Positions 1,193 to 64,000 of a stretch of 64,000 nt of DNA are shown here, in pieces. The position numbers were made by a program, and so were the translations under genes. Position 1 is the stretch's first letter, and each line of letters begins with the position of its first letter. The notes below the pieces were generated by a model that saw only the letters and a program-made list of their open reading frames with translations, was not told where the DNA came from and did not search any database. Source of the stretch: Terriglobia bacterium (lineage in GTDB: Bacteria > Acidobacteriota > Terriglobia > 20CM-2-55-15); the NCBI GenBank assembly GCA_963664115.2, contig CAXWPJ010000010.1, forward strand, positions 416,001 through 480,000. Reading direction: 5' to 3'.

Positions 1193-1459
1193 GTGGAGTA
1201 TACACCCGTTTCGGGCACTGGAATTCTCGTAGCCGTACCGATTCAAACCAGTCCGACGTTTGCAACGAGTAGACTGCGGGAATTGTTTCCACTTGCTCGG
1301 TTACGAGCTATGAATAATGTCGCTAACTACGACATCGAACCTGAAGGTGAGAGATTCATCATGACGACAGAGGACGAGGCAGGGGAGGCATCCTCGAAAC
1401 AAATCAACATCGTCCTGAACTGGTTTGAGGAACTGAAAGAACGGGTGCCGGTGCCATAG
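1193..1459 (+). pseudogene. C-terminal relic of a Ser/Thr protein kinase with a TolB/WD40-like tail
   Basis: Translation ends NYDIEPEGERFIM...QINIVLNWFEELKERVPVP*, the characteristic terminus of acidobacterial kinase-beta-propeller proteins. No kinase domain is present upstream. Confidence 0.75.
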
Positions 1460-1588
1460 TTTTTGAGTTCAAGTCCTGATAAATCGCAGTATGAAAGGAC
1501 GCCCCTAGACTGGGGGTTGTTGAGAGAAGACTCACTCAACAACCTGATCAACGTATACAGCGTTGATCCCAGAAAAGGAGCGTTCGAG

Positions 1589-2653
1589 ATGAAACAAGAC
1601 AAGTATATGGGTATGGATGTGCACCAGGCAACGACGGTGGTTGCGGTGAGAGACGGGAGCGGCAAACTGGTGTTTGAAACGATCGTGGAAACCGAGGCGG
1701 GGAGTATCACACGGCTGCTGGAGGGATTGAGTGGGCCGATGCACGTGGGGTTGGAGGAGACCACGCAAGCGGGCTGGTTATCGGAAGTGATCCGGCCGTG
1801 GGTGAGCGAGGTGGTGGTGTGCGATCCGCGACAGAACAAGTGGATGCAAGAAGGGTCGAAGGGGGATAAGCCGGATGCGCGGAAGCTGGCCGAGCTGTTG
1901 CGGGTGGGACTGTTGCGCTCGGTGTATCACGGCCATGAAGCGACGCGAGAATTGAAGCAACTGGTGCAGGCCTATGACACGTTCCAGTTGGACACGCAAC
2001 GGGTGATGTCGCGGATCAAAGCGATATACCGGGGACGGGGGATCCCGACACCGAAGGACGGAGTCTATCGGCCGAGTCAGCGCGAACAGTGGTTGGAGAA
2101 GCTGACCGAGCCGGGGATGAGGCAGCGCGCCCGATGGTTGTATGCGGAACTGGACCAGGTCCAGTTGCTGCGGAAACAATCCAGAAAAGCGGTGCGAGTG
2201 GAGGGCCGGCACCATGAGGCGGTGAAACTGCTCGAGACCATTCCACAACTGGGACCGGTTCGGGCGGCACAGATCGTCGCCATCGTGGACACGCCGTACC
2301 GATTCCGCACGACACCGCAGTTCTGGAGCTACAGTGGCCTGGGTGTGGTGACCCACATGAGCGCGGAGTATGAGATGCAGAGTGGACGTGTGGTGCGACG
2401 GAGGAAACCGGTGGCCACACGCGGATTGAATGCGAACTGCAACCGGCGATTGAAGTCGGTGTTCTTCTCAGCCGCGGCATCGGGAAAACAAAGCGAGCCG
2501 TATCGGATTTATCTGGAGAGTCTCCAGATGCGTGGGATGCGGGAGGAAATGGCGCGGGTCACTCTGGCCCGTAAGATCGCCGCACTGGTGCTGACGCTTT
2601 GGAAGAAAGGAGAATCGTTCGATCCAAAGAAACTGAGCTGGATGACAACATAA
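1589..2653 (+). CDS. IS110 family transposase/recombinase
   Basis: AGGAG RBS before ATG 1589. DEDD RuvC-like motifs (GMDVH, LEE, DKPDA) and C-terminal IPQLGPV, YSGL and LARKIA motifs. Confidence 0.93.
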   Translation: MKQDKYMGMDVHQATTVVAVRDGSGKLVFETIVETEAGSITRLLEGLSGPMHVGLEETTQAGWLSEVIRPWVSEVVVCDPRQNKWMQEGSKGDKPDARKLAELLRVGLLRSVYHGHEATRELKQLVQAYDTFQLDTQRVMSRIKAIYRGRGIPTPKDGVYRPSQREQWLEKLTEPGMRQRARWLYAELDQVQLLRKQSRKAVRVEGRHHEAVKLLETIPQLGPVRAAQIVAIVDTPYRFRTTPQFWSYSGLGVVTHMSAEYEMQSGRVVRRRKPVATRGLNANCNRRLKSVFFSAAASGKQSEPYRIYLESLQMRGMREEMARVTLARKIAALVLTLWKKGESFDPKKLSWMTT

Positions 2654-2719
2654 GCCGTTTCGATCCGTGACCGGTAGAGCCGTACTGAGTCGTTAGACGG
2701 AGTCGGAACAACTGAGGAT

Positions 2720-2845
2720 CGAGGGTGAGGATCTGCACAAGATGTGGTCCCTGGATACGTCCAGAGGACACTTTTAAATCTCTATCCCCCCTCGCACGAC
2801 CTGAAACAGCGATAGCCTTCGAGGCTCAGATAGATCCATGGTCGG
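2720..2845 (+). ncRNA. Predicted bridge/seek RNA of IS110 element 1 (target loop and donor loop)
   Basis: Two stem-loops. Their internal loops carry ACAAGATG and TAAATC (match the target) and GCGAT and ATAGATC (match the circle junction). True transcript ends are unknown. Confidence 0.75.
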
Positions 2846-3368
2846 CACATGCCGTCCCATATGCTGTTCAGTTTCTGAATCGACCGTCTTAAAGATGTAC
2901 GATTTCGCTCCGGATTGCCGGAACCAGGGCTTCACATAACGGTAGAGGGGCTGGCTGTCACGACAAAAGTGTCCGTCTGGCCGGCCATCGGGGAGCTGTT
3001 TCTCTTGACATCCCCTTTCATAGATCATCTTGTCGGAAGTTGAGAATTGGATTGTGTGGTTTTCGTCGATCCCGAGAGTAGGAAATAGAGACAGTTCTTT
3101 TGTTTTCCTATTGAATAAGACTGGATTCCAGGACTGTGACGGCTCTGAGCCGTTGGTCCAATCCGCCGACCGTCGTCCGGCAGAGCATCAGCGCCGCATA
3201 CCCCAGACACATGCCCCCGCCAATGGTCCATTCCCGGCGAGTTCTGGACAGGTTCAAAACGCTTTCGTTCACGACGTGGAGCCGAAACGTTTGTCAGTCA
3301 AACTTGTCAGAAACTTTCTCGGTGATTGCATTCTGCTTGGACTCGATATTCGAGTGCGCTATTTTTCG

Positions 3369-5998: not shown

Positions 5999-6119
5999 TC
6001 TTCAAGGTCAAGTCCTGTATCTGGACTCCTCTGTCAAGTAGGCGCAGCTCTCCCGTCAGCTTTCTTCGGCAAAATGCATTCAGCAGGACTGACTAGAAGT
6101 TACGAGGTGAGTAGCTAGT

Positions 6120-7966
6120 CCCTGAACAAGCGTGATTGACGAGGAAATGATAGTGCAATAAGAGCGGAAGTACCCGAAATGCCCCCTCTCCGTGCGAAAA
6201 AAACCTTGAACAGATTCTTCGGAAAAGGAGGCATTTCAGATGAACGATTATACGCGCAAGAACATGAGGAACCGCAAGCGGCGAATCGAACGTCGGCTTG
6301 GGGACCGGCATTGGACGGATCAGGTAGAGCCGATGTTTTCGGCGAGCAACATTCAGTACGAGATGGGAGAGCGGACGCGGGGCACATCGGTTGGTGGTAT
6401 CGGGACGATGCAACTGGTGGCGCGGCGGACCGGGCTGATCGAAGCCATCGACAAGGGCGTGCATGTGTTGAAGCGGCACCTGCCGTATCACGAGTCGGAT
6501 CACGTGCTGAACATCGCCTACAACGCCTTGAGCGGAGGAACGTGCCTGGAAGACATCGAACTGCGGCGCAACGATGCGGTGTATCTGGATGCGCTGGGAG
6601 CGCAACGGATTCCGGATCCGACGACGGCGGGAGACTTCTGCCGGAGATTCGAGGCCGACGACGTGGAGTGTCTGATGGAGGCAACCAATCAAGTCCGGCT
6701 CGGAGTCTGGCGACAGCAACCGGCGGCGTTTTTCGAAGAAGCGGTGTTGGACGCGGACGGGACACTGGCCGAAACCACGGGGGAATGCAAGCAAGGGATG
6801 GACGTGGCCTACGACGGGACGTGGGGATATCACCCGCTGATGATCTCGCTGGCCAACACCGCCGAACCGCTGTATCTGGTCAATCGTAGCGGCAACCGGC
6901 CGTCGCATGAAGGAGCCGCGGTCCGGTTCGACCAAGCCATCGCATTGTGCCGGCATGCGGGGTTTCGCCAGATCCTGCTGCGCGGGGACACGGACTTCAG
7001 CCAGACCCGGCATCTGGACGGATGGGACGACCAGCAGGTGGGTTTCATATTCGGGATTGACGCGATGGCGAACCTGAAGGCCCGGGCCGATGAACTGGAG
7101 CCGCGCCAGTGGAAGCGCCTGGAACGGCCCGCGAAATACGACGTGGCGACCGAACCGCGCCAACGTCCCGACAACGTGAAGGAAGAGATCGTTCGGCAGC
7201 GCGGTTTCGACAATATCCGCTTGCAGGGTGAGGATGTGGCCGAGTTTCGGTATCGACCCGGAGCCTGCGATCGGGACTACCGTGTCGTCGTGGTGCGGAA
7301 GAATCTGTCGGTGGCCAAAGGAGAGCAGGTGTTGTTTGACGACATCCGGTACTTCTTCTACATTACCAACCGTTCGGATCCGGCCGACCAGATTGTGATG
7401 CGTGCCAATCAACGGTGCAATCAGGAGAATCTCATTGAGCAGTTGAAGAACGGCGTTCAGGCGTTGCGGATGCCGGTCGGAGATCAGACCAGCAACTGGG
7501 CCTACATGGTGATCGCGTCACTGGCCTGGACACTGAAAGCGTGGTTTGCATTGCTGCTTCCCGAAACCGGACGTTGGGGCCAAAAATATCAGGCTGAGAA
7601 GCAAACCGTGCTGCGCATGGAGTTCAAAACCTTCTTGAACGCTTTCATGCTTGTGCCGTGCCAACTCGTGCGCACCGGGCGGCGCATTCTGTTCCGGATC
7701 CTGGCCTGGAACCGGTGGTTGCCGGTCTTGTTCCGCGGGGTGGATGTGTTGCGTCAGCCTCTGCGATGTTGACCCGATCATGACTCTGAGCCCGGGCGAT
7801 CGAGGTCCCGGTTTCTGTCAACCGTCCAACACCAGCGAGGCTGAACTGAAACAGATTCAACAGAAACTCGATACCTGGAACAGGCCATCCGGGAACGGGA
7901 TTCTATGCCTCGAATTCTATCGGCGCGAACTGGGCCTCGGCGGACTGGTTATGCGCTTGTTTTGGG
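6120..7966 (+). mobile_element. IS1380 family element, copy 1 (1847 bp)
   Basis: Ends CCCTGAACAAGCG and CGCTTGTTTTGGG; 6-bp TSD GCTAGT on both sides. Confidence 0.95.
6240..7772 (+). CDS. IS1380 family DDE transposase
   Basis: 510 aa with LDADGT, GYHPL, LRGDTDF and RCNQENLIEQLK motifs; five near-identical copies in the window. Confidence 0.93.
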   Translation: MNDYTRKNMRNRKRRIERRLGDRHWTDQVEPMFSASNIQYEMGERTRGTSVGGIGTMQLVARRTGLIEAIDKGVHVLKRHLPYHESDHVLNIAYNALSGGTCLEDIELRRNDAVYLDALGAQRIPDPTTAGDFCRRFEADDVECLMEATNQVRLGVWRQQPAAFFEEAVLDADGTLAETTGECKQGMDVAYDGTWGYHPLMISLANTAEPLYLVNRSGNRPSHEGAAVRFDQAIALCRHAGFRQILLRGDTDFSQTRHLDGWDDQQVGFIFGIDAMANLKARADELEPRQWKRLERPAKYDVATEPRQRPDNVKEEIVRQRGFDNIRLQGEDVAEFRYRPGACDRDYRVVVVRKNLSVAKGEQVLFDDIRYFFYITNRSDPADQIVMRANQRCNQENLIEQLKNGVQALRMPVGDQTSNWAYMVIASLAWTLKAWFALLLPETGRWGQKYQAEKQTVLRMEFKTFLNAFMLVPCQLVRTGRRILFRILAWNRWLPVLFRGVDVLRQPLRC

Positions 7967-7974
7967 GCTAGTCG

Positions 7975-8107
7975 ACTGCACCCGTATCTTCGGCCTCAAA
8001 AGTGGAACTGTATTGTTCCAGGCCATGATGGAAATTTGCGCGCGGGGAGCCAACCGATAAAATAACGGCCTCTAAGGGCCAAAGGACTTGTCGGCGTTGC
8101 CCCGCGC
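7975..8107 (-). ncRNA. Predicted bridge/seek RNA of IS110 element 2
   Basis: On the minus strand the stem GCGCGGGG/CCCCGCGC encloses CAAGTCCT and TTTATC (target match). The next loop holds CCATCAT and AGATA (donor-junction match). Confidence 0.75.
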
Positions 8108-8178: not shown

Positions 8179-9213
8179 TCAGGCCGCCTGATACCGGGCC
8201 TGATGGTCACAGTCACGGTTCCAAACCGCCCACACGCGACGCGCCAACTTGTTGGCCAGTGCAACGATTGCCTTGTTGTGTCCGCGGAACTCGTGTTTCT
8301 GGAGACCCCATTGCTGGAGAGGTGTCGGTGTGGCGCCCTCTCGATGGGCACTCCACAACAGGGAACGGCCCCCATGAACCAACAGCATCCGGAGGTAACG
8401 ATCGCCTTGCTTACTGATCCGGCCCATGCGTCGCTGGTTGCCACTGGAATGTTCCCGGGGTGTGAGTCCCAGATAACTGGCAAAATGGCGGGACGTTCGG
8501 AATCGTTTGATGTTTCCAACAAACCCCACCATTGCCGTTGCCGTTAACAGGCCGATGCCGGGAATCGACGTCAGACGCGCGACCTCAGGCATCTGCCGAG
8601 CCAGCGTCTTCAACTCTTGTTCCACCGATCGCATGCGAGATTCCAATTCACGGATCTCGCCACACACCTGGTGAAACATCTCCCGAACGACACTGGGGAT
8701 GACGACATCTGCATCTTCGATCAGCTCCATTACCCCCGGCACCAGATGATCCGCTCCGGTCGGGATCACGTAGCCAAACTCCCGTAACAACCCCCGCACC
8801 GTATTGATCCGTGCGGTTCGGGTTCGCATCCACGCCGAACGGATTCGATGCAATGAGGTCAGTTGCTGTTGGGCCAGGGTTTTGACCGGCACTGGATGAA
8901 TATCGCTGTCACGATAGGCTTCCAACAATCCTTTCACATCCGTACGGTCGGTCTTGTTGCGCCTGACGTAGGGCGTCACATACTGCGGCGAGATCAGAAC
9001 GACCGTGTGTCCCAGTTCCCGGATCTTCCGACCCCAGTAATGGGCGGATCCGCAGGCTTCCATCACCACGGTCGCCAGCTCCTGGTTCGCAAAGAACCCC
9101 AGAAACTTTGCCCGACTTAAACGATAGGTTTTCTCTACATGCCCGGGGCGATCTGAAACACCAATTTGAAAAACATTCTTTGCCAGATCCACTGCTATCG
9201 TTCTATTCTTCAT
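8179..9213 (-). CDS. IS110 family transposase/recombinase
   Basis: MKNRTIAVDLAKNVFQ, MEACG, KTDRTD, SIPGIG, LGLTPREHSSG, GRISKQGD and ALANKLAR motifs. Confidence 0.95.
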   Translation of the reverse strand: MKNRTIAVDLAKNVFQIGVSDRPGHVEKTYRLSRAKFLGFFANQELATVVMEACGSAHYWGRKIRELGHTVVLISPQYVTPYVRRNKTDRTDVKGLLEAYRDSDIHPVPVKTLAQQQLTSLHRIRSAWMRTRTARINTVRGLLREFGYVIPTGADHLVPGVMELIEDADVVIPSVVREMFHQVCGEIRELESRMRSVEQELKTLARQMPEVARLTSIPGIGLLTATAMVGFVGNIKRFRTSRHFASYLGLTPREHSSGNQRRMGRISKQGDRYLRMLLVHGGRSLLWSAHREGATPTPLQQWGLQKHEFRGHNKAIVALANKLARRVWAVWNRDCDHQARYQAA

Positions 9214-9373
9214 CTCGGACTCCTTTTTGTTCACACGTACACGTGTTTCGCCCGCTTTATTGCGAGGCTCAAAATGACTTTGGCACTTCGATGCCGACTC
9301 AGTCATCAAAGAGGAGTCCATACCATCAATAAATCATCTTCTCGGACGTTGAGAAACCCGCTGATTCAAATCA

Positions 9374-9568: not shown

Positions 9569-9719
9569 GGCTCTGTATCGGACTGAGAATTATGATAAGA
9601 AGTGTGACATGATGCGGTCTTCGAATCTGGATGTTCACGGTTCTGGGTGTTATCCAGGAATACGCCCGCATTCCTGTTGAGAGATACGACCCGCAACCTG
9701 AACAGCAATGAGCGCTAGT

Positions 9720-11566
9720 CCCAAAACAAGCGCATAACCAGTCCGCCGAGGCCCAGTTCGCGCCGATAGAATTCGAGGCATAGAATCCCGTTCCCGGATG
9801 GCCTGTTCCAGGTATCGAGTTTCTGTTGAATCTGTTTCAGTTCAGCCTCGCTGGTGTTGGACGGTTGACAGAAACCGGGACCTCGATCGCCCGGGCTCAG
9901 AGTCATGATCGGGTCAACATCGCAGAGGCTGACGCAACACATCCACCCCGCGGAACAAGACCGGCAACCACCGGTTCCAGGCCAGGATCCGGAACAGAAT
10001 GCGCCGCCCGGTGCGCACGAGTTGGCACGGCACAAGCATGAAAGCGTTCAAGAAGGTTTTGAACTCCATGCGCAGCACGGTTTGCTTCTCAGCCTGATAT
10101 TTTTGGCCCCAACGTCCGGTTTCGGGAAGCAGCAATGCAAACCACGCTTTCAGTGTCCAGGCCAGTGACGCGATCACCATGTAGGCCCAGTTGCTGGTCT
10201 GATCTCCGACCGGCATCCGCAACGCCTGAACGCCGTTCTTCAACTGCTCAATGAGATTCTCCTGATTGCACCGTTGATTGGCACGCATCACAATCTGGTC
10301 GGCCGGATCCGAACGGTTGGTAATGTAGAAGAAGTACCGGATGTCGTCAAACAACACCTGCTCTCCTTTGGCCACCGACAGATTCTTCCGCACCACGACG
10401 ACACGGTAGTCCCGATCGCAGGCTCCGGGTCGATACCGAAACTCGGCCACATCCTCACCCTGCAAGCGGATATTGTCGAAACCGCGCTGCCGAACGATCT
10501 CTTCCTTCACGTTGTCGGGACGTTGGCGCGGTTCGGTCGCCACGTCGTATTTCGCGGGCCGTTCCAGGCGCTTCCACTGGCGCGGCTCCAGTTCATCGGC
10601 CCGGGCCTTCAGGTTCGCCATCGCGTCAATCCCGAATATGAAACCCACCTGCTGGTCGTCCCATCCGTCCAGATGCCGGGTCTGGCTGAAGTCCGTGTCC
10701 CCGCGCAGCAGGATCTGGCGAAACCCCGCATGCCGGCACAATGCGATGGCTTGGTCGAACCGGACCGCGGCTCCTTCATGCGACGGCCGGTTGCCGCTAC
10801 GATTGACCAGATACAGCGGTTCGGCGGTGTTGGCCAGCGAGATCATCAGCGGGTGATATCCCCACGTCCCGTCGTAGGCCACGTCCATCCCTTGCTTGCA
10901 TTCCCCCGTGGTTTCGGCCAGTGTCCCGTCCGCGTCCAACACCGCTTCTTCGAAAAACGCCGCCGGTTGCTGTCGCCAGACTCCGAGCCGGACTTGATTG
11001 GTTGCCTCCATCAGACACTCCACGTCGTCGGCCTCGAATCTCCGGCAGAAGTCTCCCGCCGTCGTCGGATCCGGAATCCGTTGCGCTCCCAGCGCATCCA
11101 GATACACCGCATCGTTGCGCCGCAGTTCGATGTCTTCCAGGCACGTTCCTCCGCTCAAGGCGTTGTAGGCGATGTTCAGCACGTGATCCGACTCGTGATA
11201 CGGCAGGTGCCGCTTCAACACATGCACGCCCTTGTCGATGGCTTCGATCAGCCCGGTCCGCCGCGCCACCAGTTGCATCGTCCCGATACCACCAACCGAT
11301 GTGCCCCGCGTCCGCTCTCCCATCTCGTACTGAATGTTGCTCGCCGAAAACATCGGCTCTACCTGATCCGTCCAATGCCGGTCCCCAAGCCGACGTTCGA
11401 TTCGCCGCTTGCGGTTCCTCATGTTCTTGCGCGTATAATCGTTCATCTGAAATGCCTCCTTTTCCGAAGAATCTGTTCAAGGTTTTTTTCGCACGGAGAG
11501 GGGGCATTTCGGGTACTTCCGCTCTTATTGCACTATCATTTCCTCGTCAATCACGCTTGTTCAGGG
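9720..11566 (-). mobile_element. IS1380 family element, copy 2
   Basis: Same ends as copy 1; TSD GCTAGT on both sides. Confidence 0.95.
9914..11446 (-). CDS. IS1380 family transposase
   Basis: Protein identical to 6240-7772. Confidence 0.93.
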   Translation of the reverse strand: MNDYTRKNMRNRKRRIERRLGDRHWTDQVEPMFSASNIQYEMGERTRGTSVGGIGTMQLVARRTGLIEAIDKGVHVLKRHLPYHESDHVLNIAYNALSGGTCLEDIELRRNDAVYLDALGAQRIPDPTTAGDFCRRFEADDVECLMEATNQVRLGVWRQQPAAFFEEAVLDADGTLAETTGECKQGMDVAYDGTWGYHPLMISLANTAEPLYLVNRSGNRPSHEGAAVRFDQAIALCRHAGFRQILLRGDTDFSQTRHLDGWDDQQVGFIFGIDAMANLKARADELEPRQWKRLERPAKYDVATEPRQRPDNVKEEIVRQRGFDNIRLQGEDVAEFRYRPGACDRDYRVVVVRKNLSVAKGEQVLFDDIRYFFYITNRSDPADQIVMRANQRCNQENLIEQLKNGVQALRMPVGDQTSNWAYMVIASLAWTLKAWFALLLPETGRWGQKYQAEKQTVLRMEFKTFLNAFMLVPCQLVRTGRRILFRILAWNRWLPVLFRGVDVLRQPLRC

Positions 11567-11591
11567 GCTAGTTTGGAAAGGAGAGAATCCC

Positions 11592-15321: not shown

Positions 15322-15380
15322 AAATCAACGTGGTCTTGATTCGGTTTGAAGAACTGAAGGAACGGGTGCCGACCCCCTGA
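15322..15380 (+). pseudogene. Degenerate C-terminus of a kinase gene
   Basis: INVVLIRFEELKERVPTP*, closely similar at DNA level to 1402-1459. Confidence 0.75.
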
Positions 15381-15392
15381 TTCCCGAGGTCA

Positions 15393-15420
15393 AGTCCTGA
15401 CAAATCATCTTCTCGGACGT
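15393..15420 (+). repeat. dif-like site C (intact)
   Basis: AGTCCTGACAA-ATCATC-TTCTCGGACGT; imperfect inverted arms that extend to TCAA...TTGA. Confidence 0.8.
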
Positions 15421-15538
15421 TGAGAAACCATGTGGCACGTATAAATTCCTGACACCCTCCGATCTCTCAAGTCACGCCACCCGGTTCTTGTGCAAAAAAG
15501 TCAATTGAACTGGTTGTCACCAGGTTACACTCCGAGGA

Positions 15539-15926: not shown

Positions 15927-15961
15927 ACAGAACCGGCTATTCGGACAACAGTCCATTCTCA

Positions 15962-15989
15962 AGTCCTGAGAAATCATCTTGTCGGACAT
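15962..15989 (+). repeat. dif-like site D (intact)
   Basis: AGTCCTGAGAA-ATCATC-TTGTCGGACAT. Confidence 0.8.
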
Positions 15990-16234
15990 TGAAAATTGGC
16001 AGATTACTGAGGTTTACTTTGTGCAATTTTCTACGATGTCGTTTCGCAGGAATTGAGAATTATTTAGCACCTAACGCCCTCCCTTAGTATTTTTTATAGA
16101 GTTTTTCACAGTTCAATTTGGGACACACTATGTAGCTTCAGCATCTGGTGCGCGCGATTGGCCGTTGCCCGCGTGCGCCGTGCTAAGGCATCCCGCGTCT
16201 CCCGGAAGACGCGGTGTGTGCGATTGTTTCCCAG

Positions 16235-40166: not shown

Positions 40167-40634
40167 ATGGCTGACTTGGAAACAGGCCCCCTACAGAGCA
40201 GTCCCGACGACGAGAACCTCCGGGACGGGCTTGAGGAATTAGAAGAACTACGCCGGGAGCGGCGAGAATTTTTTACAAAGGTCTTCTTTGGATTTCTTGG
40301 CCTGGTGGCACTCGTCGCACTCGTGGTTTTTTTCCCCACAATAAACCGGCGCGCTGCAGGCGGTCTGAGGGCCGGTCAAGAGGCCATCGTCAGCAGGGCG
40401 TCCGTCGTCGGTGTGGACTTCGAGGCGTGGACCGAAGTGGCGGCTCTTGAGAACAACAATAACCAGATAGCGCTCAACCAGCTGATGGGCACGGGTCGAG
40501 CCTTCATCGTGAACGAAGGGTCGGACGTAGTTATTCTTGAAGTCAGATTCAACAGTGTGATGGTCCGCGCCTTGGACGGTACCAACGCCGGGAAGGAGGG
40601 CTGGCTGCGCTCGGGGAGCCTACGGGCCAACTAG
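40167..40634 (+). CDS. Hypothetical membrane-anchored protein
   Basis: 155 aa with one TM helix and an SH3-like GKEGWL tail; its stop codon lies in the IS target CTAG. Confidence 0.65.
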   Translation: MADLETGPLQSSPDDENLRDGLEELEELRRERREFFTKVFFGFLGLVALVALVVFFPTINRRAAGGLRAGQEAIVSRASVVGVDFEAWTEVAALENNNNQIALNQLMGTGRAFIVNEGSDVVILEVRFNSVMVRALDGTNAGKEGWLRSGSLRAN

Positions 40635-40635
40635 T

Positions 40636-42482
40636 CCCAAAACAAGCGCATAACCAGTCCGCCGAGGCCCAGTTCGCGCCGATAGAATTCGAGGCATAGA
40701 ATCCCGTTCCCGGATGGCCTGTTCCAGGTATCGAGTTTCTGTTGAATCTGTTTCAGTTCAGCCTCGCTGGTGTTGGACGGTTGACAGAAACCGGGACCTC
40801 GATCGCCCGGGCTCAGAGTCATGATCGGGTCAACATCGCAGAGGCTGACGCAACACATCCACCCCGCGGAACAAGACCGGCAACCACCGGTTCCAGGCCA
40901 GGATCCGGAACAGAATGCGCCGCCCGGTGCGCACGAGTTGGCACGGCACAAGCATGAAAGCGTTCAAGAAGGTTTTGAACTCCATGCGCAGCACGGTTTG
41001 CTTCTCAGCCTGATATTTTTGGCCCCAACGTCCGGTTTCGGGAAGCAGCAATGCAAACCACGCTTTCAGTGTCCAGGCCAGTGACGCGATCACCATGTAG
41101 GCCCAGTTGCTGGTCTGATCTCCGACCGGCATCCGCAACGCCTGAACGCCGTTCTTCAACTGCTCAATGAGATTCTCCTGATTGCACCGTTGATTGGCAC
41201 GCATCACAATCTGGTCGGCCGGATCCGAACGGTTGGTAATGTAGAAGAAGTACCGGATGTCGTCAAACAACACCTGCTCTCCTTTGGCCACCGACAGATT
41301 CTTCCGCACCACGACGACACGGTAGTCCCGATCGCAGGCTCCGGGTCGATACCGAAACTCGGCCACATCCTCACCCTGCAAGCGGATATTGTCGAAACCG
41401 CGCTGCCGAACGATCTCTTCCTTCACGTTGTCGGGACGTTGGCGCGGTTCGGTCGCCACGTCGTATTTCGCGGGCCGTTCCAGGCGCTTCCACTGGCGCG
41501 GCTCCAGTTCATCGGCCCGGGCCTTCAGGTTCGCCATCGCGTCAATCCCGAATATGAAACCCACCTGCTGGTCGTCCCATCCGTCCAGATGCCGGGTCTG
41601 GCTGAAGTCCGTGTCCCCGCGCAGCAGGATCTGGCGAAACCCCGCATGCCGGCACAATGCGATGGCTTGGTCGAACCGGACCGCGGCTCCTTCATGCGAC
41701 GGCCGGTTGCCGCTACGATTGACCAGATACAGCGGTTCGGCGGTGTTGGCCAGCGAGATCATCAGCGGGTGATATCCCCACGTCCCGTCGTAGGCCACGT
41801 CCATCCCTTGCTTGCATTCCCCCGTGGTTTCGGCCAGTGTCCCGTCCGCGTCCAACACCGCTTCTTCGAAAAACGCCGCCGGTTGCTGTCGCCAGACTCC
41901 GAGCCGGACTTGATTGGTTGCCTCCATCAGACACTCCACGTCGTCGGCCTCGAATCTCCGGCAGAAGTCTCCCGCCGTCGTCGGATCCGGAATCCGTTGC
42001 GCTCCCAGCGCATCCAGATACACCGCATCGTTGCGCCGCAGTTCGATGTCTTCCAGGCACGTTCCTCCGCTCAAGGCGTTGTAGGCGATGTTCAGCACGT
42101 GATCCGACTCGTGATACGGCAGGTGCCGCTTCAACACATGCACGCCCTTGTCGATGGCTTCGATCAGCCCGGTCCGCCGCGCCACCAGTTGCATCGTCCC
42201 GATACCACCAACCGATGTGCCCCGCGTCCGCTCTCCCATCTCGTACTGAATGTTGCTCGCCGAAAACATCGGCTCTACCTGATCCGTCCAATGCCGGTCC
42301 CCAAGCCGACGTTCGATTCGCCGCTTGCGGTTCCTCATGTTCTTGCGCGTATAATCGTTCATCTGAAATGCCTCCTTTTCCGAAGAATCTGTTCAAGGTT
42401 TTTTTCGCACGGAGAGGGGGCATTTCGGGTACTTCCGCTCTTATTGCACTATCATTTCCTCGTCAATCACGCTTGTTCAGGG
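40636..42482 (-). mobile_element. IS1380 family element, copy 3 (non-matching flanks)
   Basis: Flanks are ACTAGT and TCTAGG. Confidence 0.95.
40830..42362 (-). CDS. IS1380 family transposase
   Basis: Protein identical to copy 1. Confidence 0.93.
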   Translation of the reverse strand: MNDYTRKNMRNRKRRIERRLGDRHWTDQVEPMFSASNIQYEMGERTRGTSVGGIGTMQLVARRTGLIEAIDKGVHVLKRHLPYHESDHVLNIAYNALSGGTCLEDIELRRNDAVYLDALGAQRIPDPTTAGDFCRRFEADDVECLMEATNQVRLGVWRQQPAAFFEEAVLDADGTLAETTGECKQGMDVAYDGTWGYHPLMISLANTAEPLYLVNRSGNRPSHEGAAVRFDQAIALCRHAGFRQILLRGDTDFSQTRHLDGWDDQQVGFIFGIDAMANLKARADELEPRQWKRLERPAKYDVATEPRQRPDNVKEEIVRQRGFDNIRLQGEDVAEFRYRPGACDRDYRVVVVRKNLSVAKGEQVLFDDIRYFFYITNRSDPADQIVMRANQRCNQENLIEQLKNGVQALRMPVGDQTSNWAYMVIASLAWTLKAWFALLLPETGRWGQKYQAEKQTVLRMEFKTFLNAFMLVPCQLVRTGRRILFRILAWNRWLPVLFRGVDVLRQPLRC

Positions 42483-42977
42483 TCTAGGTTGACTCTTCCG
42501 TTGGGCAGATCGTTGTTTTGTTGGGCAAATTGCTCCCGTTAGGCAAAGCCTGTTTATGGCCTCACAACCAGGATTTCCTTTTCCGGACTGGAGTCCCTAA
42601 GTAGGTGCCACAGCGCAACTTAGCAGTGATTTCCGTCCGGCCACGGAGCGTTGACAGAGTACCACGGCATGGTAGAAGGGGCGTAGTTCTCGGCGATGAA
42701 AGCCTGCGCGATGCGACTTCCCGCCTGGTTTCGAGAGAGAGCAGGGCCAGCTGTCGATAATAACGGACAGATTCCTGGACACCGGGGGCATCCTGCTGGC
42801 CTCGGCGAAACTGTGGCTCTTGCGGGACTAGCTTCGAATTCCCGCGCCCCAAGTCATTCTGATTTTCGGGTTATTCACCCGGGCAGCGAACGTCTACGTG
42901 CTCAGCCTCCTTCCCGATTTCCTGATTCGCTTCGTGTTGTAGCTCCTGACGCACAGCGTCGAGCCGGAGTCTCTTCT

Positions 42978-46091: not shown

Positions 46092-46138
46092 CGTGGTGAA
46101 AGCCCGAGCGCTGCGACTCCCTGCCTGGCCTCACTAGG

Positions 46139-47980
46139 CCCAAAACAAGCGCATAACCAGTCCGCCGAGGCCCAGTTCGCGCCGATAGAATTCGAGGCAT
46201 AGAATCCCGTTCCCGGATGGCCTGTTCCAGGTATCGAGTTTCTGTTGAATCTGTTTCAGTTCAGCCTCGCTGGTGTTGGACGGTTGACAGAAACCGGGAC
46301 CTCGATCGCCCGGGCTCAGAGTCATGATCGGGTCAACATCGCAGAGGCTGACGCAACACATCCACCCCGCGGAACAAGACCGGCAACCACCGGTTCCAGG
46401 CCAGGATCCGGAACAGAATGCGCCGCCCGGTGCGCACGAGTTGGCACGGCACAAGCATGAAAGCGTTCAAGAAGGTTTTGAACTCCATGCGCAGCACGGT
46501 TTGCTTCTCAGCCTGATATTTTTGGCCCCAACGTCCGGTTTCGGGAAGCAGCAATGCAAACCACGCTTTCAGTGTCCAGGCCAGTGACGCGATCACCATG
46601 TAGGCCCAGTTGCTGGTCTGATCTCCGACCGGCATCCGCAACGCCTGAACGCCGTTCTTCAACTGCTCAATGAGATTCTCCTGATTGCACCGTTGATTGG
46701 CACGCATCACAATCTGGTCGGCCGGATCCGAACGGTTGGTAATGTAGAAGAAGTACCGGATGTCGTCAAACAACACCTGCTCTCCTTTGGCCACCGACAG
46801 ATTCTTCCGCACCACGACGACACGGTAGTCCCGATCGCAGGCTCCGGGTCGATACCGAAACTCGGCCACATCCTCACCCTGCAAGCGGATATTGTCGAAA
46901 CCGCGCTGCCGAACGATCTCTTCCTTCACGTTGTCGGGACGTTGGCGCGGTTCGGTCGCCACGTCGTATTTCGCGGGCCGTTCCAGGCGCTTCCACTGGC
47001 GCGGCTCCAGTTCATCGGCCCGGGCCTTCAGGTTCGCCATCGCGTCAATCCCGAATATGAAACCCACCTGCTGGTCGTCCCATCCGTCCAGATGCCGGGT
47101 CTGGCTGAAGTCCGTGTCCCCGCGCAGCAGGATCTGGCGAAACCCCGCATGCCGGCACAATGCGATGGCTTGGTCGAACCGGACCGCGGCTCCTTCATGC
47201 GACGGCCGGTTGCCGCTACGATTGACCAGATACAGCGGTTCGGCGGTGTTGGCCAGCGAGATCATCAGCGGGTGATATCCCCACGTCCCGTCGTAGGCCA
47301 CGTCCATCCCTTGCTTGCATTCCCCCGTGGTTTCGGCCAGTGTCCCGTCCGCGTCCAACACCGCTTCTTCGAAAAACGCCGCCGGTTGCTGTCGCCAGAC
47401 TCCGAGCCGGACTTGATTGGTTGCCTCCATCAGACACTCCACGTCGTCGGCCTCGCCGGCAGAAGTCTCCCGCCGTCGTCGGATCCGGAATCCGTTGCGC
47501 TCCCAGCGCATCCAGATACACCGCATCGTTGCGCCGCAGTTCGATGTCTTCCAGGCACGTTCCTCCGCTCAAGGCGTTGTAGGCGATGTTCAGCACGTGA
47601 TCCGACTCGTGATACGGCAGGTGCCGCTTCAACACATGCACGCCCTTGTCGATGGCTTCGATCAGCCCGGTCCGCCGCGCCACCAGTTGCATCGTCCCGA
47701 TACCACCAACCGATGTGCCCCGCGTCCGCTCTCCCATCTCGTACTGAATGTTGCTCGCCGAAAACATCGGCTCTACCTGATCCGTCCAATGCCGGTCCCC
47801 AAGCCGACGTTCGATTCGCCGCTTGCGGTTCCTCATGTTCTTGCGCGTATAATCGTTCATCTGAAATGCCTCCTTTTCCGAAGAATCTGTTCAAGGTTTT
47901 TTTCGCACGGAGAGGGGGCATTTCGGGTACTTCCGCTCTTATTGCACTATCATTTCCTCGTCAATCACGCTTGTTCAGGG
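46139..47980 (-). mobile_element. IS1380 family element, copy 4 (1842 bp, transposase frameshifted)
   Basis: TSD ACTAGG on both sides; a 5-bp deletion (AATCT) near 47455 splits the transposase. Confidence 0.93.
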
Positions 47981-48045
47981 ACTAGGGAAAGATCAGGGTC
48001 AGATGTCTATAAAAACGGACGAATAAAGAGACGGTCTCGAACCCC

Positions 48046-54982: not shown

Positions 54983-55028
54983 GACGCAAATAACACAGCT
55001 GAGAGCCTCTTACGTTCCCCCTACTAGA

Positions 55029-56875
55029 CCCAAAACAAGCGCATAACCAGTCCGCCGAGGCCCAGTTCGCGCCGATAGAATTCGAGGCATAGAATCCCGT
55101 TCCCGGATGGCCTGTTCCAGGTATCGAGTTTCTGTTGAATCTGTTTCAGTTCAGCCTCGCTGGTGTTGGACGGTTGACAGAAACCGGGACCTCGATCGCC
55201 CGGGCTCAGAGTCATGATCGGGTCAACATCGCAGAGGCTGACGCAACACATCCACCCCGCGGAACAAGACCGGCAACCACCGGTTCCAGGCCAGGATCCG
55301 GAACAGAATGCGCCGCCCGGTGCGCACGAGTTGGCACGGCACAAGCATGAAAGCGTTCAAGAAGGTTTTGAACTCCATGCGCAGCACGGTTTGCTTCTCA
55401 GCCTGATATTTTTGGCCCCAACGTCCGGTTTCGGGAAGCAGCAATGCAAACCACGCTTTCAGTGTCCAGGCCAGTGACGCGATCACCATGTAGGCCCAGT
55501 TGCTGGTCTGATCTCCGACCGGCATCCGCAACGCCTGAACGCCGTTCTTCAACTGCTCAATGAGATTCTCCTGATTGCACCGTTGATTGGCACGCATCAC
55601 AATCTGGTCGGCCGGATCCGAACGGTTGGTAATGTAGAAGAAGTACCGGATGTCGTCAAACAACACCTGCTCTCCTTTGGCCACCGACAGATTCTTCCGC
55701 ACCACGACGACACGGTAGTCCCGATCGCAGACTCCGGGTCGATACCGAAACTCGGCCACATCCTCACCCTGCAAGCGGATATTGTCGAAACCGCGCTGCC
55801 GAACGATCTCTTCCTTCACGTTGTCGGGACGTTGGCGCGGTTCGGTCGCCACGTCGTATTTCGCGGGCCGTTCCAGGCGCTTCCACTGGCGCGGCTCCAG
55901 TTCATCGGCCCGGGCCTTCAGGTTCGCCATCGCGTCAATCCCGAATATGAAACCCACCTGCTGGTCGTCCCATCCGTCCAGATGCCGGGTCTGGCTGAAG
56001 TCCGTGTCCCCGCGCAGCAGGATCTGGCGAAACCCCGCATGCCGGCACAATGCGATGGCTTGGTCGAACCGGACCGCGGCTCCTTCATGCGACGGCCGGT
56101 TGCCGCTACGATTGACCAGATACAGCGGTTCGGCGGTGTTGGCCAGCGAGATCATCAGCGGGTGATATCCCCACGTCCCGTCGTAGGCCACGTCCATCCC
56201 TTGCTTGCATTCCCCCGTGGTTTCGGCCAGTGTCCCGTCCGCGTCCAACACCGCTTCTTCGAAAAACGCCGCCGGTTGCTGTCGCCAGACTCCGAGCCGG
56301 ACTTGATTGGTTGCCTCCATCAGACACTCCACGTCGTCGGCCTCGAATCTCCGGCAGAAGTCTCCCGCCGTCGTCGGATCCGGAATCCGTTGCGCTCCCA
56401 GCGCATCCAGATACACCGCATCGTTGCGCCGCAGTTCGATGTCTTCCAGGCACGTTCCTCCGCTCAAGGCGTTGTAGGCGATGTTCAGCACGTGATCCGG
56501 CTCGTGATACGGCAGGTGCCGCTTCAACACATGCACGCCCTTGTCGATGGCTTCGATCAGCCCGGTCCGCCGCGCCACCAGTTGCATCGTCCCGATACCA
56601 CCAACCGATGTGCCCCGCGTCCGCTCTCCCATCTCGTACTGAATGTTGCTCGCCGAAAACATCGGCTCTACCTGATCCGTCCAATGCCGGTCCCCAAGCC
56701 GACGTTCGATTCGCCGCTTGCGGTTCCTCATGTTCTTGCGCGTATAATCGTTCATCTGAAATGCCTCCTTTTCCGAAGAATCTGTTCAAGGTTTTTTTCG
56801 CACGGAGAGGGGGCATTTCGGGTACTTCCGCTCTTATTGCACTATCATTTCCTCGTCAATCACCCTTGTTCAGGG
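55029..56875 (-). mobile_element. IS1380 family element, copy 5 (non-matching flanks, three substitutions seen)
   Basis: Flanks are ACTAGA and ACTAGT. The protein has YHEP and RPGV variants, and there is one change in the left IR. Confidence 0.95.
55223..56755 (-). CDS. IS1380 family transposase
   Basis: 510 aa, two substitutions relative to copy 1. Confidence 0.93.
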   Translation of the reverse strand: MNDYTRKNMRNRKRRIERRLGDRHWTDQVEPMFSASNIQYEMGERTRGTSVGGIGTMQLVARRTGLIEAIDKGVHVLKRHLPYHEPDHVLNIAYNALSGGTCLEDIELRRNDAVYLDALGAQRIPDPTTAGDFCRRFEADDVECLMEATNQVRLGVWRQQPAAFFEEAVLDADGTLAETTGECKQGMDVAYDGTWGYHPLMISLANTAEPLYLVNRSGNRPSHEGAAVRFDQAIALCRHAGFRQILLRGDTDFSQTRHLDGWDDQQVGFIFGIDAMANLKARADELEPRQWKRLERPAKYDVATEPRQRPDNVKEEIVRQRGFDNIRLQGEDVAEFRYRPGVCDRDYRVVVVRKNLSVAKGEQVLFDDIRYFFYITNRSDPADQIVMRANQRCNQENLIEQLKNGVQALRMPVGDQTSNWAYMVIASLAWTLKAWFALLLPETGRWGQKYQAEKQTVLRMEFKTFLNAFMLVPCQLVRTGRRILFRILAWNRWLPVLFRGVDVLRQPLRC

Positions 56876-56876
56876 A

Positions 56877-57039
56877 CTAGTTGCGGACCAACAGCGAGTT
56901 GAGCAAAACCATCCGCCAATTCATCCGTGTAGCGATTGGCTTGTTCCAACCCCCACTCTTCGAGCGTATAGAGCCAGATGGCTTCAACGTCACGCCTGGC
57001 TTCCGGCGTTAATCGATATTCAGCGGACTTTTTTGGCAT
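56877..57039 (-). pseudogene. parE: ParE/RelE family toxin, 5' half only
   Basis: MPKKSAEYRLTPEARRDVEAIWLYTLEEWGLEQANRY..., cut by IS1380 copy 5. Confidence 0.85.
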
Positions 57040-63685: not shown

Positions 63686-63840
63686 GCGTTCCACCGTCGC
63701 GCTGGAGCACGGCGGGTTGGGCCTGCGTGCGAGCTAATAGGATTCCTGTAGGTTCAGATCTTAATTGTCACACCGGTTTGTCCACAGACTCGTCGTTTCT
63801 ACTATTTGTAGTTTTATTATTTGTCTTATTACTTGTAAGA

Positions 63841-64000
63841 GTGTACCTGTAACAGCGGAAAATCGAGAGGGGAGTGTACCCGTAACAGCGGAAAATCGAG
63901 AGGGGAGTGTACCCGTAACAGCGGAAAATCGAGAGGGGAGTGTACCCGTAACAGCGGAAAATCGAGAGGGGAGTGTACCTGTAACAGCGGAAAATCGAGA
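63841..64000. repeat. 33-bp tandem direct repeats (iteron-like), at least 5 copies, truncated by the window edge
   Basis: GTGTACCYGTAACAGCGGAAAATCGAGAGGGGA starts at 63841, 63874, 63907, 63940 and 63973. An AT-rich stretch at ~63800-63840 precedes it. Confidence 0.85.

Follow-up and report, generated by a model that had tools for sequence, protein, structure and literature searches.

Introduction

The closest described relatives of the locus analysed here are insertion sequences of the IS1111 group, exemplified by ISEc11, ISKpn4 and ISPa11 (PMC11187229, PMC11208160). The available sections of these reports describe a DEDD recombinase gene followed by a long non-coding region, subterminal inverted repeats lying 7 and 3 bp inside the ends, a junction promoter, a single target position and orientation, natural reprogramming and, in the seekRNA, a top-strand guide that comes first (PMC11187229). 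The inverted repeats span 7–17 bp and are usually 11–13 bp long, many of the RNAs have multi-loop donor regions and bridge RNAs have been predicted in 93% of the catalogued members (PMC11208160, as excerpted); an RNA of this kind is therefore no surprise in itself. IS621 and ISCro4 (PMC11208158; PDB entries 8wt6 and 9t56) follow the same two-loop RNA logic with a 2 nt core but, in the descriptions available, carry the RNA in the left end, use a CT core and have the opposite guide order.

Two further groups bear on the target. IS1111-attC elements (ISKpn4, ISPst6) target repeated recombination sites, those of integron cassettes (cited in PMC11187229), and the IS1202/ISAjo2/ISAba32 'pdif hunters' seek dif-like sites that bound mobile modules, as in the dif modules of Acinetobacter (PMC10132070; 10.1101/2022.12.17.520857). 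As summarized in these sources, the pdif hunters have a TnsB-modelled transposase, insert outside the site, 5 bp away from it, and produce a 5 bp duplication; the Acinetobacter modules have inverted site pairs and a canonical XerD arm.

Here, we describe an IS1111-type element in a 64 000-nucleotide stretch of DNA from a Terriglobia bacterium (the window, meaning this whole stretch). The element shares with ISEc11, ISKpn4 and ISPa11 the type of recombinase and gene layout, the repeat spacing, the guide order, the single target position and orientation, natural reprogramming and, as a prediction, the junction promoter. It differs from them, as they are described in those sections, in a divergent recombinase clade (GL-V----SA/SS) that scores below the NF033542 cut-off, a short, perfect inverted repeat of 8–9 bp, a TC/AC core, a conserved helix over the 5′ donor guide and a new target class. 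The fold, the two-loop logic, the core length and the distance of the catalytic Ser from the preceding GL are as in IS621 and ISCro4, at about 20% identity. In common with the attC group, it appears to be an RNA-guided IS1111 parasite of gene-array recombination sites; unlike them, it inserts inside the conserved 6 bp spacer of a fixed 11-6-11 palindrome. Compared with the pdif hunters and the Acinetobacter modules, insertion here splits the spacer, neighbouring sites are mostly direct (77/95) and the XerD-like arm is poor. Searches of the openly licensed literature gave no paper on IS110 or IS1111 elements at dif-like sites, on a helix masking a donor guide or on such a repeat system.

Our main conclusion, held with high confidence, is that the segment forms the structured and conserved right end of an IS1111-type element that is intact and present in seven copies, and that it very likely encodes a bridge RNA; the target loop of this RNA likely pairs with both strands of an 11-6-11 palindrome repeated in the genome, which would guide the DEDD recombinase to the TC of the palindrome's spacer.

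Materials and methods

Relatives of the element were collected as 106 loci; 94 of these had a parsable RNA (12 were dropped) and were collapsed to 71 unique target loops. Metagenome relatives were the best 80 of 305. The right flanks of L083, L090, L096 and L097, in which the end was unrecognizable and apparently interrupted, were left out. Tests by position used only the clade of 60% or higher identity; L100, which carries a deletion, was excluded from the left-guide test and L085 from the right-guide test. The recombinase alignment comprised 60 of 120 proteins. To estimate how often the motifs arise by chance, the right non-coding end was subjected to 3000 dinucleotide shuffles.

Results and discussion

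Element, ends and recombinase

The coordinates of all features are given in Table 1. Seven copies of the element are present in the genome and their proteins are 100% identical; one orphan left end brings the count to eight left and seven right ends. All seven copies share one insertion point and one orientation within the palindromic repeat. The region around the C11 copy is duplicated on C6 without the element (C6:45032), and there the flanks join exactly and retain one core. A single target, one orientation and no extra bases on insertion were thus found in 7/7 copies and in the exact empty allele. The junctions read TAAATC/GCAGTATG on the left and CATAGATC/ATCTTGT on the right.

Table 1. 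Features of the element, its RNA segment, its target repeat and associated modules. Positions are those of the window unless prefixed by C.
Feature	Position	Strand	Basis or remark
IS1111-type element	1484..3024	+	1541 bp counting one core copy; 7 genome copies
Left 11 bp repeat arm AGTCCTGATAA	1472..1482	+	Last bases are the left target
Core TC, left copy	1484..1485	+	Same 2 nt on both sides in 52/54 elements
-10 box CAGTAT, predicted circle-junction promoter	1487-1492	+	Sequence
Left subterminal inverted repeat ATGAAAGG	1491..1498	+	7 bp inside end; sequence
DEDD recombinase, 354 aa	1589..2653	+	D10, E57, D93, D96, S258 invariant in 60 homologs
Predicted full bridge RNA	2704..2878	+	Closed by 2705-2709/2871-2875 helix; ends inferred from conservation
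Target-binding loop	2720..2794	+	Outer stem 2720-2732/2784-2794; inner hairpin 2747-2769
Right target guide ACAAGATG	2737..2744	+	Pairs with top strand: core C plus ATCTTGT
Left target guide TTAAATC	2774..2780	+	Covariation and repeat variants
Motif TAAATC	2775-2780	+	Sequence
Motif TCCCCCCTC	2785-2793	+	Sequence
Donor-binding loop	2798..2843	+	GACC/GGTC stem; AGCCT hairpin AGCCTTCGAGGCT 2814-2826
Putative right (5′) donor guide ACAGCGAT	2806..2813	+	Also pairs with 2863-2871
Left (3′) donor guide ATAGATC	2830..2836	+	Identical to right end plus core
Conserved GCTGTTCAG	2863..2871	+	Complementary to 2801-2810
Outward-facing -35 box TTGACA	3005..3010	+	In 52/54 homologs; 17 bp from left-end -10 in predicted circle
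Right subterminal inverted repeat CCTTTCAT	3014..3021	+	3 bp inside end; sequence
Right core TC, rest of spacer (ATC), right 11 bp arm TTGTCGGAAGT, TGAGAA	3025..3046	+	Sequence
Duplicated module	C2:264317-265606 = C6:43783-45072		Exact site borders
Duplicated module	C6:39793-40182 = C10:252493-252882		Exact site borders
Duplicated module	C12:516517-517232 = C2:319212-319952		Exact site borders
Tyrosine recombinase + IS91 elements	C1:92965, C1:108556, C2:196490, C12:36231, C12:159079, C12:487026

The non-coding DNA measures about 370 bp 3′ of the recombinase gene and about 105 bp 5′ of it. The subterminal inverted repeats are perfect over 8–9 bp, which lies inside the range given for IS1111 elements and under the usual length, and have the 7 + 3 bp spacing of the IS1111 rule. 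Joining of the ends in a circle is predicted to create a TTGACA-17-CAGTAT promoter, the -35 box of which is kept in 52/54 homologues; a linear promoter scan of 1400–3100 gave no sense promoter.

Both Pfam domains of such recombinases, PF01548 (N-terminal DEDD RuvC) and PF02371 (C-terminal Tnp), scored above their cut-offs. The predicted structure (pLDDT 76.5) matches the fold of IS621 and ISCro4 (Foldseek E value 2e-14; PDB entries 8wt6 and 9t56), and S258 aligns with the ISCro4 serine. The five catalytic residues are present in 60/60 aligned homologues, and with seven identical proteins the recombinase appears to be intact, as the original prediction had it. The Tnp motif deviates from the consensus GL-P----SG, with V for P and S/A for G. 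The match to NCBIfam NF033542 (IS110 RNA-guided transposase; residues 6–342) reached 122.3 bits, below the cut-off of 140, and the protein is therefore not filed under this family. The clade is divergent in sequence and large, with 5804 hits among 8000 scored candidates; a single-protein scan gave two loci in genome contigs and one in the viral set.

Several other elements were observed. Five near-identical DDE_Tnp_1_4 elements lie in the window (6115–7972, 9715–11571, 40630–42487, 46133–47985 and 55023–56889). One of these copies breaks the right end of a second IS110 element, described below, and other DDE_Tnp_1_4 elements break copies of the present element at CCTAG. A candidate orphan RNA or truncated relative lies at G000 C12:531100-531500, where a right end has a complete AC-core bridge-RNA-like segment but no more than a trace of transposase upstream. 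Locus L152 of G402 is a 97% identical fragment of the present element, with TCAAGATG as its altered right guide; after it, a further IS1111-like end lies within the same repeat arm. A 33 bp tandem repeat of at least five copies (63839–64000) runs past the end of the window.

Core dinucleotide

The same two nucleotides stand on both sides of the element in 52/54 elements (AC in 45, TC in six and GC in one), which matches the 2 nt core of IS621 in the available text of PMC11208158. The base 5′ of the core is common to target and donor in only 24/54 elements and the base 3′ of it in 22/54; the core is therefore taken to be TC, the match at A1483 being coincidental, and the ATC core of the original prediction does not hold. 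G precedes the core in the target of the TC-core metagenome relatives L063, L072, L073, L083, L101 and L105. TC occupies positions 2 and 3 of the ATCATC spacer, and all seven copies are inserted there, in agreement with the claim that the element enters the 6 bp spacer.

Right-end RNA segment

The nine motifs named in the original prediction lie 66–190 nt past the stop codon of the recombinase gene and a sequence check found each at its claimed position. Taken singly, the motifs occurred in the shuffles with frequencies of 0.006 (the 8 nt right target guide), 0.042, 0.022 and 0.138, and both target guides together in 0/3000. The single-sequence fold is only modestly better than that of shuffled sequences (z = −1.57); the case therefore rests on comparison with relatives. 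Across 58 homologues, 95.8% of the cells in the stems are paired and 15/37 pairs show two-sided changes; 0/500 shuffles gave such support and slid controls reached 35–54%. The inner hairpin is paired in only 82% of the cells, owing to imperfect alignment. The helix 2705-2709/2871-2875 encloses both loops, so the RNA is predicted to be about 175 nt long, exceeding the interval proposed originally. Rfam gave no match for the RNA segment.

Two folds of nearly equal energy were obtained: one at −53.5 kcal mol−1 with the donor loop open and one at −56.5 kcal mol−1 with 2806–2810 paired to 2863–2867. The second loop of the original prediction is thus supported in the homologues through its open-fold stems, but represents one of two near-equal folds. 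The check proposed with that prediction, folding and covariation with homologous elements, yielded stems with compensatory changes and three guides that covary with the flanks, in support of a bridge or seek-type RNA in the right end.

Target guides and choice of site

The right guide was compared with the reverse complement of the right flank of its own element and scored 6.20/7, against 3.77 when flanks were permuted (n = 64; register free); the left guide matched its left flank with 4.24/5 against 2.13 (n = 54; register free). Neither value was reached in 5000 permutations (0/5000 each). By position, agreement for the right guide was 0.78–0.88 at RT1–7 versus 0.27–0.48, with a drop at RT8–9 (n = 50); for the left guide it was 0.98/0.98/0.95/0.72/0.57 at LT1–5 versus 0.26–0.36, with a drop at LT6 (n = 40). 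When similar guides were collapsed, the scores were 5.73 versus 2.37 (right, 11 clusters) and 4.55 versus 1.40 (left, 20 clusters), again with 0/5000. The top-strand match precedes the bottom-strand guide, which is the order in IS1111 seekRNAs according to the excerpted PMC11187229. Relatives from the same genus with 64–70% identity have other guides and are inserted at other dispersed sequences. These comparisons uphold the view that the target loop is probably programmed against the repeat, and that the guides have been reprogrammed naturally in relatives, where they change with the site.

Coincidence might be suspected from motifs of only 6–8 nt, a 7/8 donor match that arises in 14% of shuffles and a fold z value of only −1.57. 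Covariation over 54–64 elements with 0/5000 permutations refutes chance matching for three of the four guides, and we give this explanation of the matches a negligible probability.

The choice among repeats within the genome is consistent with the same guides. TAAATC is present in 7/7 occupied repeats and in 33/167 empty ones, CATCTTGT in 6/7 and 31/167, and both together in 6/7 and 4/167; when only canonical sites are counted, both guide-matching halves occur in 6/7 versus 4/121 (p = 2.6e-7). Upstream sequence is common to some of the occupied sites, which makes these p values optimistic. TTAAATC, a rare variant, is enriched in occupied repeats (3/7 versus 3/167 empty), from which we extend the left guide by one base: the TAAATC guide of the original prediction is present and covaries, but is one base too short. 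Within this genome, insertions are shown to lie preferentially in the uncommon repeat variants to which the guides match. The exact guide-defined 13-mer has seven matches genome-wide, all in whole or half repeats; with the 13-mer confined to the repeat, the guides are enough to account for the pattern of insertion.

Alternatively, a host protein bound to the repeat, or the palindromic structure of the repeat, could be the main cue for insertion, and the guides would then fix the register only. A second IS1111 element and tyrosine-recombinase/IS91-type elements do insert in or beside the same repeat, for the IS1202 family, which finds dif sites, the available text mentions no RNA guide (PMC10132070), and an added structure requirement is reported for ISPpu10 in the accessible part of 10.64898/2026.03.19.712850. 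Recognition of that kind sits poorly with insertions that pick the few guide-matching variants, with the restriction of the 13-mer to the repeat and with close relatives that have other guides and use unrelated dispersed sites. We regard it as improbable and retain guide pairing as the likely means of target choice.

Donor loop

The ATAGATC segment is identical to the right end plus core in 63/64 elements, including 15/15 with variant (non-majority) ends, and its covariation with the right end agrees with its assignment as a probable donor guide. For the 5′ donor guide the outcome was mixed. The proposed motif is present, but in both the TC and AC clades it carries a mismatch to the left end, and it pairs better with a downstream RNA segment; because of this constant mismatch and the compensated pairing with 2863–2871, it is not regarded as established. 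The helix 2801-2810/2863-2871 (downstream consensus GCTKWTCAG) is paired in 97.9% of cells, 14 of which have two-sided changes, at two pairs. By cells, 0/500 shuffles equalled this (slid controls 30–61%), and by the pairs-with-change measure 245/500 did; the two-sided changes follow the TC/AC clade split and thus represent few events. A complement of the 5′ donor segment lies just downstream in 57/68 elements, compared with controls further downstream. The covariation of the 5′ donor guide is better explained by this predicted RNA–RNA helix. The pairing of GCTGTTCAG is putatively a guide-masking helix, a multi-loop closure or a pseudoknot, and may be a known IS1111 feature, as multi-loop donor regions are noted in the excerpted PMC11208160. 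We infer that the helix over the 5′ donor guide could act as a switch.

A different division of labour would follow if only the target loop, as a short seekRNA (about 2718–2796), and the 3′ donor guide were at work, with the 5′ donor segment locked in the helix and the left end recognized mainly by the protein through the subterminal repeats. The near-universal pairing of the helix, the 3 kcal mol−1 advantage of the masked fold, the frequent downstream complement and the invariable mismatch would fit, as would the short target-only RNAs that dominate or suffice in other elements (PMC11187229; 10.1101/2025.10.25.684509, in the sections available). The small number of changes, tied to the TC/AC split, tells against it, as do the GACC/GGTC stem of the open loop, which is also conserved with compensations, the multi-loop donor regions already noted for IS1111 RNAs (PMC11208160, as excerpted) and the prospect that protein binding could open the helix. 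We consider such a short RNA possible, if rather unlikely; it would change the donor half of the model and not the target half. The two-loop bridge RNA is kept as the preferred reading.

RNA coverage and state of the element

Parts of 2654–2986 were covered in 4/4 metatranscriptome runs (one study, contigs) at a depth of about 2–4 with few differences, and deeper RNA pieces at 2780–2847 come from a relative. This coverage is a hint only, as contigs give neither strand nor ends and may contain DNA. The 5′ part of the recombinase gene was without cover in the RNA contigs, which is not read as absence. In RNA runs X2 and X3, a contig joins 2777 back to 2576 (202 nt), a join that was not listed in the DNA runs; 2576–2777 may represent an RNA, processed or circular, whose end lies in the left target guide; alternatively, the join may be an artefact of reverse transcription.

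The sparse RNA coverage could also mean that the RNA is a true bridge RNA but that this copy has recently been silenced and is a relic. Four DNA runs listed no circle junction, although these are contigs, which drop rare forms, and the result is not read as absence; one copy of the element is interrupted and one left end has been orphaned by another insertion sequence. Silencing is at odds with seven identical proteins that retain all five catalytic residues, with the few nucleotide differences among the copies and with the exact empty/filled pair, and we judge it to be quite improbable.

Target repeat and gene modules

The repeat has the form TCAAGTCCTGANAA-ATCATC-TTSTCGGACNTTGAGAA, with two inverted 11 bp arms around a 6 bp spacer, and occurs in 167 empty, clustered copies, of which 131 have the spacer ATCATC; the reversed-genome control gave zero copies. 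Within the window, 37 bp copies of this repeat lie at 15390–15426 and 15959–15995 and a half-site at 9330–9355. Three of four other genomes of the genus have 85, 40 and 8 copies and two family members have one each; the repeat was not found in 300 other genomes of the phylum that were searched. Among these genomes the repeat is genus-restricted.

The target had been called a dif-like site. Its 11-6-11 geometry fits that name, but the poor XerD-like arm does not, and the likely true dif of the host lies elsewhere. One good dif candidate, present as a single copy, was found at about G000 C2 108118–108145 (−), near a GC-skew turn and about 40 kb from xerD (C2:150455-151351); XerC is encoded at C9:863231-864193. 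The repeat agrees with the host dif at 8/11 positions of the C arm and at only 5–6/11 of the D arm, and is therefore not filed as dif. Over the 22 arm positions the agreement is mostly 11–13, against 9–10 for random 49-mers. An integron integrase was observed at C9:714590-715759.

Among relatives with a TC core, the metagenome elements L063, L072, L073, L101 and L105 lie in dif-like palindromes or XerD-arm-like sequence, and the mean dif score is 13.2 for six TC elements (this one included) against 10.1 for 43 AC elements. The idea that the whole TC-core sub-clade hunts dif-like sites was rejected: six G401 and two G402 copies lie at dispersed TAYTG/CACTG-TC-AACTT-type sites with no palindromes.

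Neighbouring repeats have the same orientation in 77 of 95 pairs, and the inverse orientation expected of Acinetobacter-type dif modules was thus not the rule here. Site orientation shows only a mild bias relative to GC skew (85 versus 50), which is uninformative. Three different site-to-site segments recur elsewhere in the genome, and on both sides their homology stops at the sites (Table 1); larger duplications that ignore the sites are also present. On this comparison the repeat is likely to be a recombination site bounding mobile gene modules, in which case the element gains many intergenic landing places. It probably borders mobile gene cassettes, and a cassette system that has so far escaped description is possible.

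Other features adjoin the repeat. A second, unrelated IS1111-type element (IS110 element 2, window 8179–9321, −) enters the same repeat from the opposite strand, with its insertion point at AT in the other repeat arm; its right end contains a segment, the presumed guide (8079–8091, −), complementary to the AGGACTTG flank. G000 also carries six identical elements that encode a tyrosine recombinase (293 aa) and an IS91 transposase (394 aa). Five of these start about 20–35 nt beside a whole or degenerate repeat and the sixth starts about 250 nt away from a clear copy. Two related elements (C12:570146 and C3:2990) start inside a repeat. A gene-end remnant ending in WFEELKERVPVP and a stop codon, putatively a kinase-type tail, lies just upstream of 65/167 repeats (in the window at 1401–1459 and 15322–15380). 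A minor spacer class, ACGACA/ACGACC, accounts for 16/167 sites and is often opposite in orientation to its neighbours. Two such sites, inverted relative to each other, flank a 316 aa tyrosine recombinase (C5:52189-53139); this protein was rejected as the enzyme of the repeat since it was not found in G402 and G403, which have 85 and 40 sites.

A broader reading joins these observations, and we offer it tentatively, thinking it less probable than otherwise: an undescribed, genus-restricted, integron-like cassette system would comprise about 170 dif-like sites, mostly in direct arrays, with modules moving from site to site; two unrelated RNA-guided IS1111 elements would have been independently programmed onto its repeat; and the conserved donor-guide-masking helix of the present clade would serve as an on/off switch.

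Proposed mechanism and significance

The ends, the 2 nt core, the compensated stems, the three covarying guides and the preference for certain repeat variants come directly from sequence and comparison, whereas the steps of the mechanism are drawn from work on IS621 and ISEc11. The element would form a circle, the joined ends of which would make the predicted promoter. The bridge RNA would then be made from the right end and bind the recombinase. To the right of the core, ACAAGATG would pair with the top strand; to its left, TTAAATC would pair with the bottom strand. ATAGATC would read the donor; D10, E57, D93 and D96 together with S258 would cut and exchange strands next to TC. Taken together, the element appears to work as an IS1111-group element with a bridge or seek RNA and shows the recombinase, end, insertion-site and target-guide features of one.

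The fresher leads are the repeat and cassette system and the guide-masking helix, more than the RNA itself. As a well validated, divergent and abundant clade with TC/AC cores and mapped guides, these elements are candidates for the programmable-recombinase toolbox. The competing helix over the 5′ donor guide bears on how IS1111 elements read their donor and on why short target-only RNAs work. The guides also lead to a repeat that appears to organize mobile gene modules across the chromosome.
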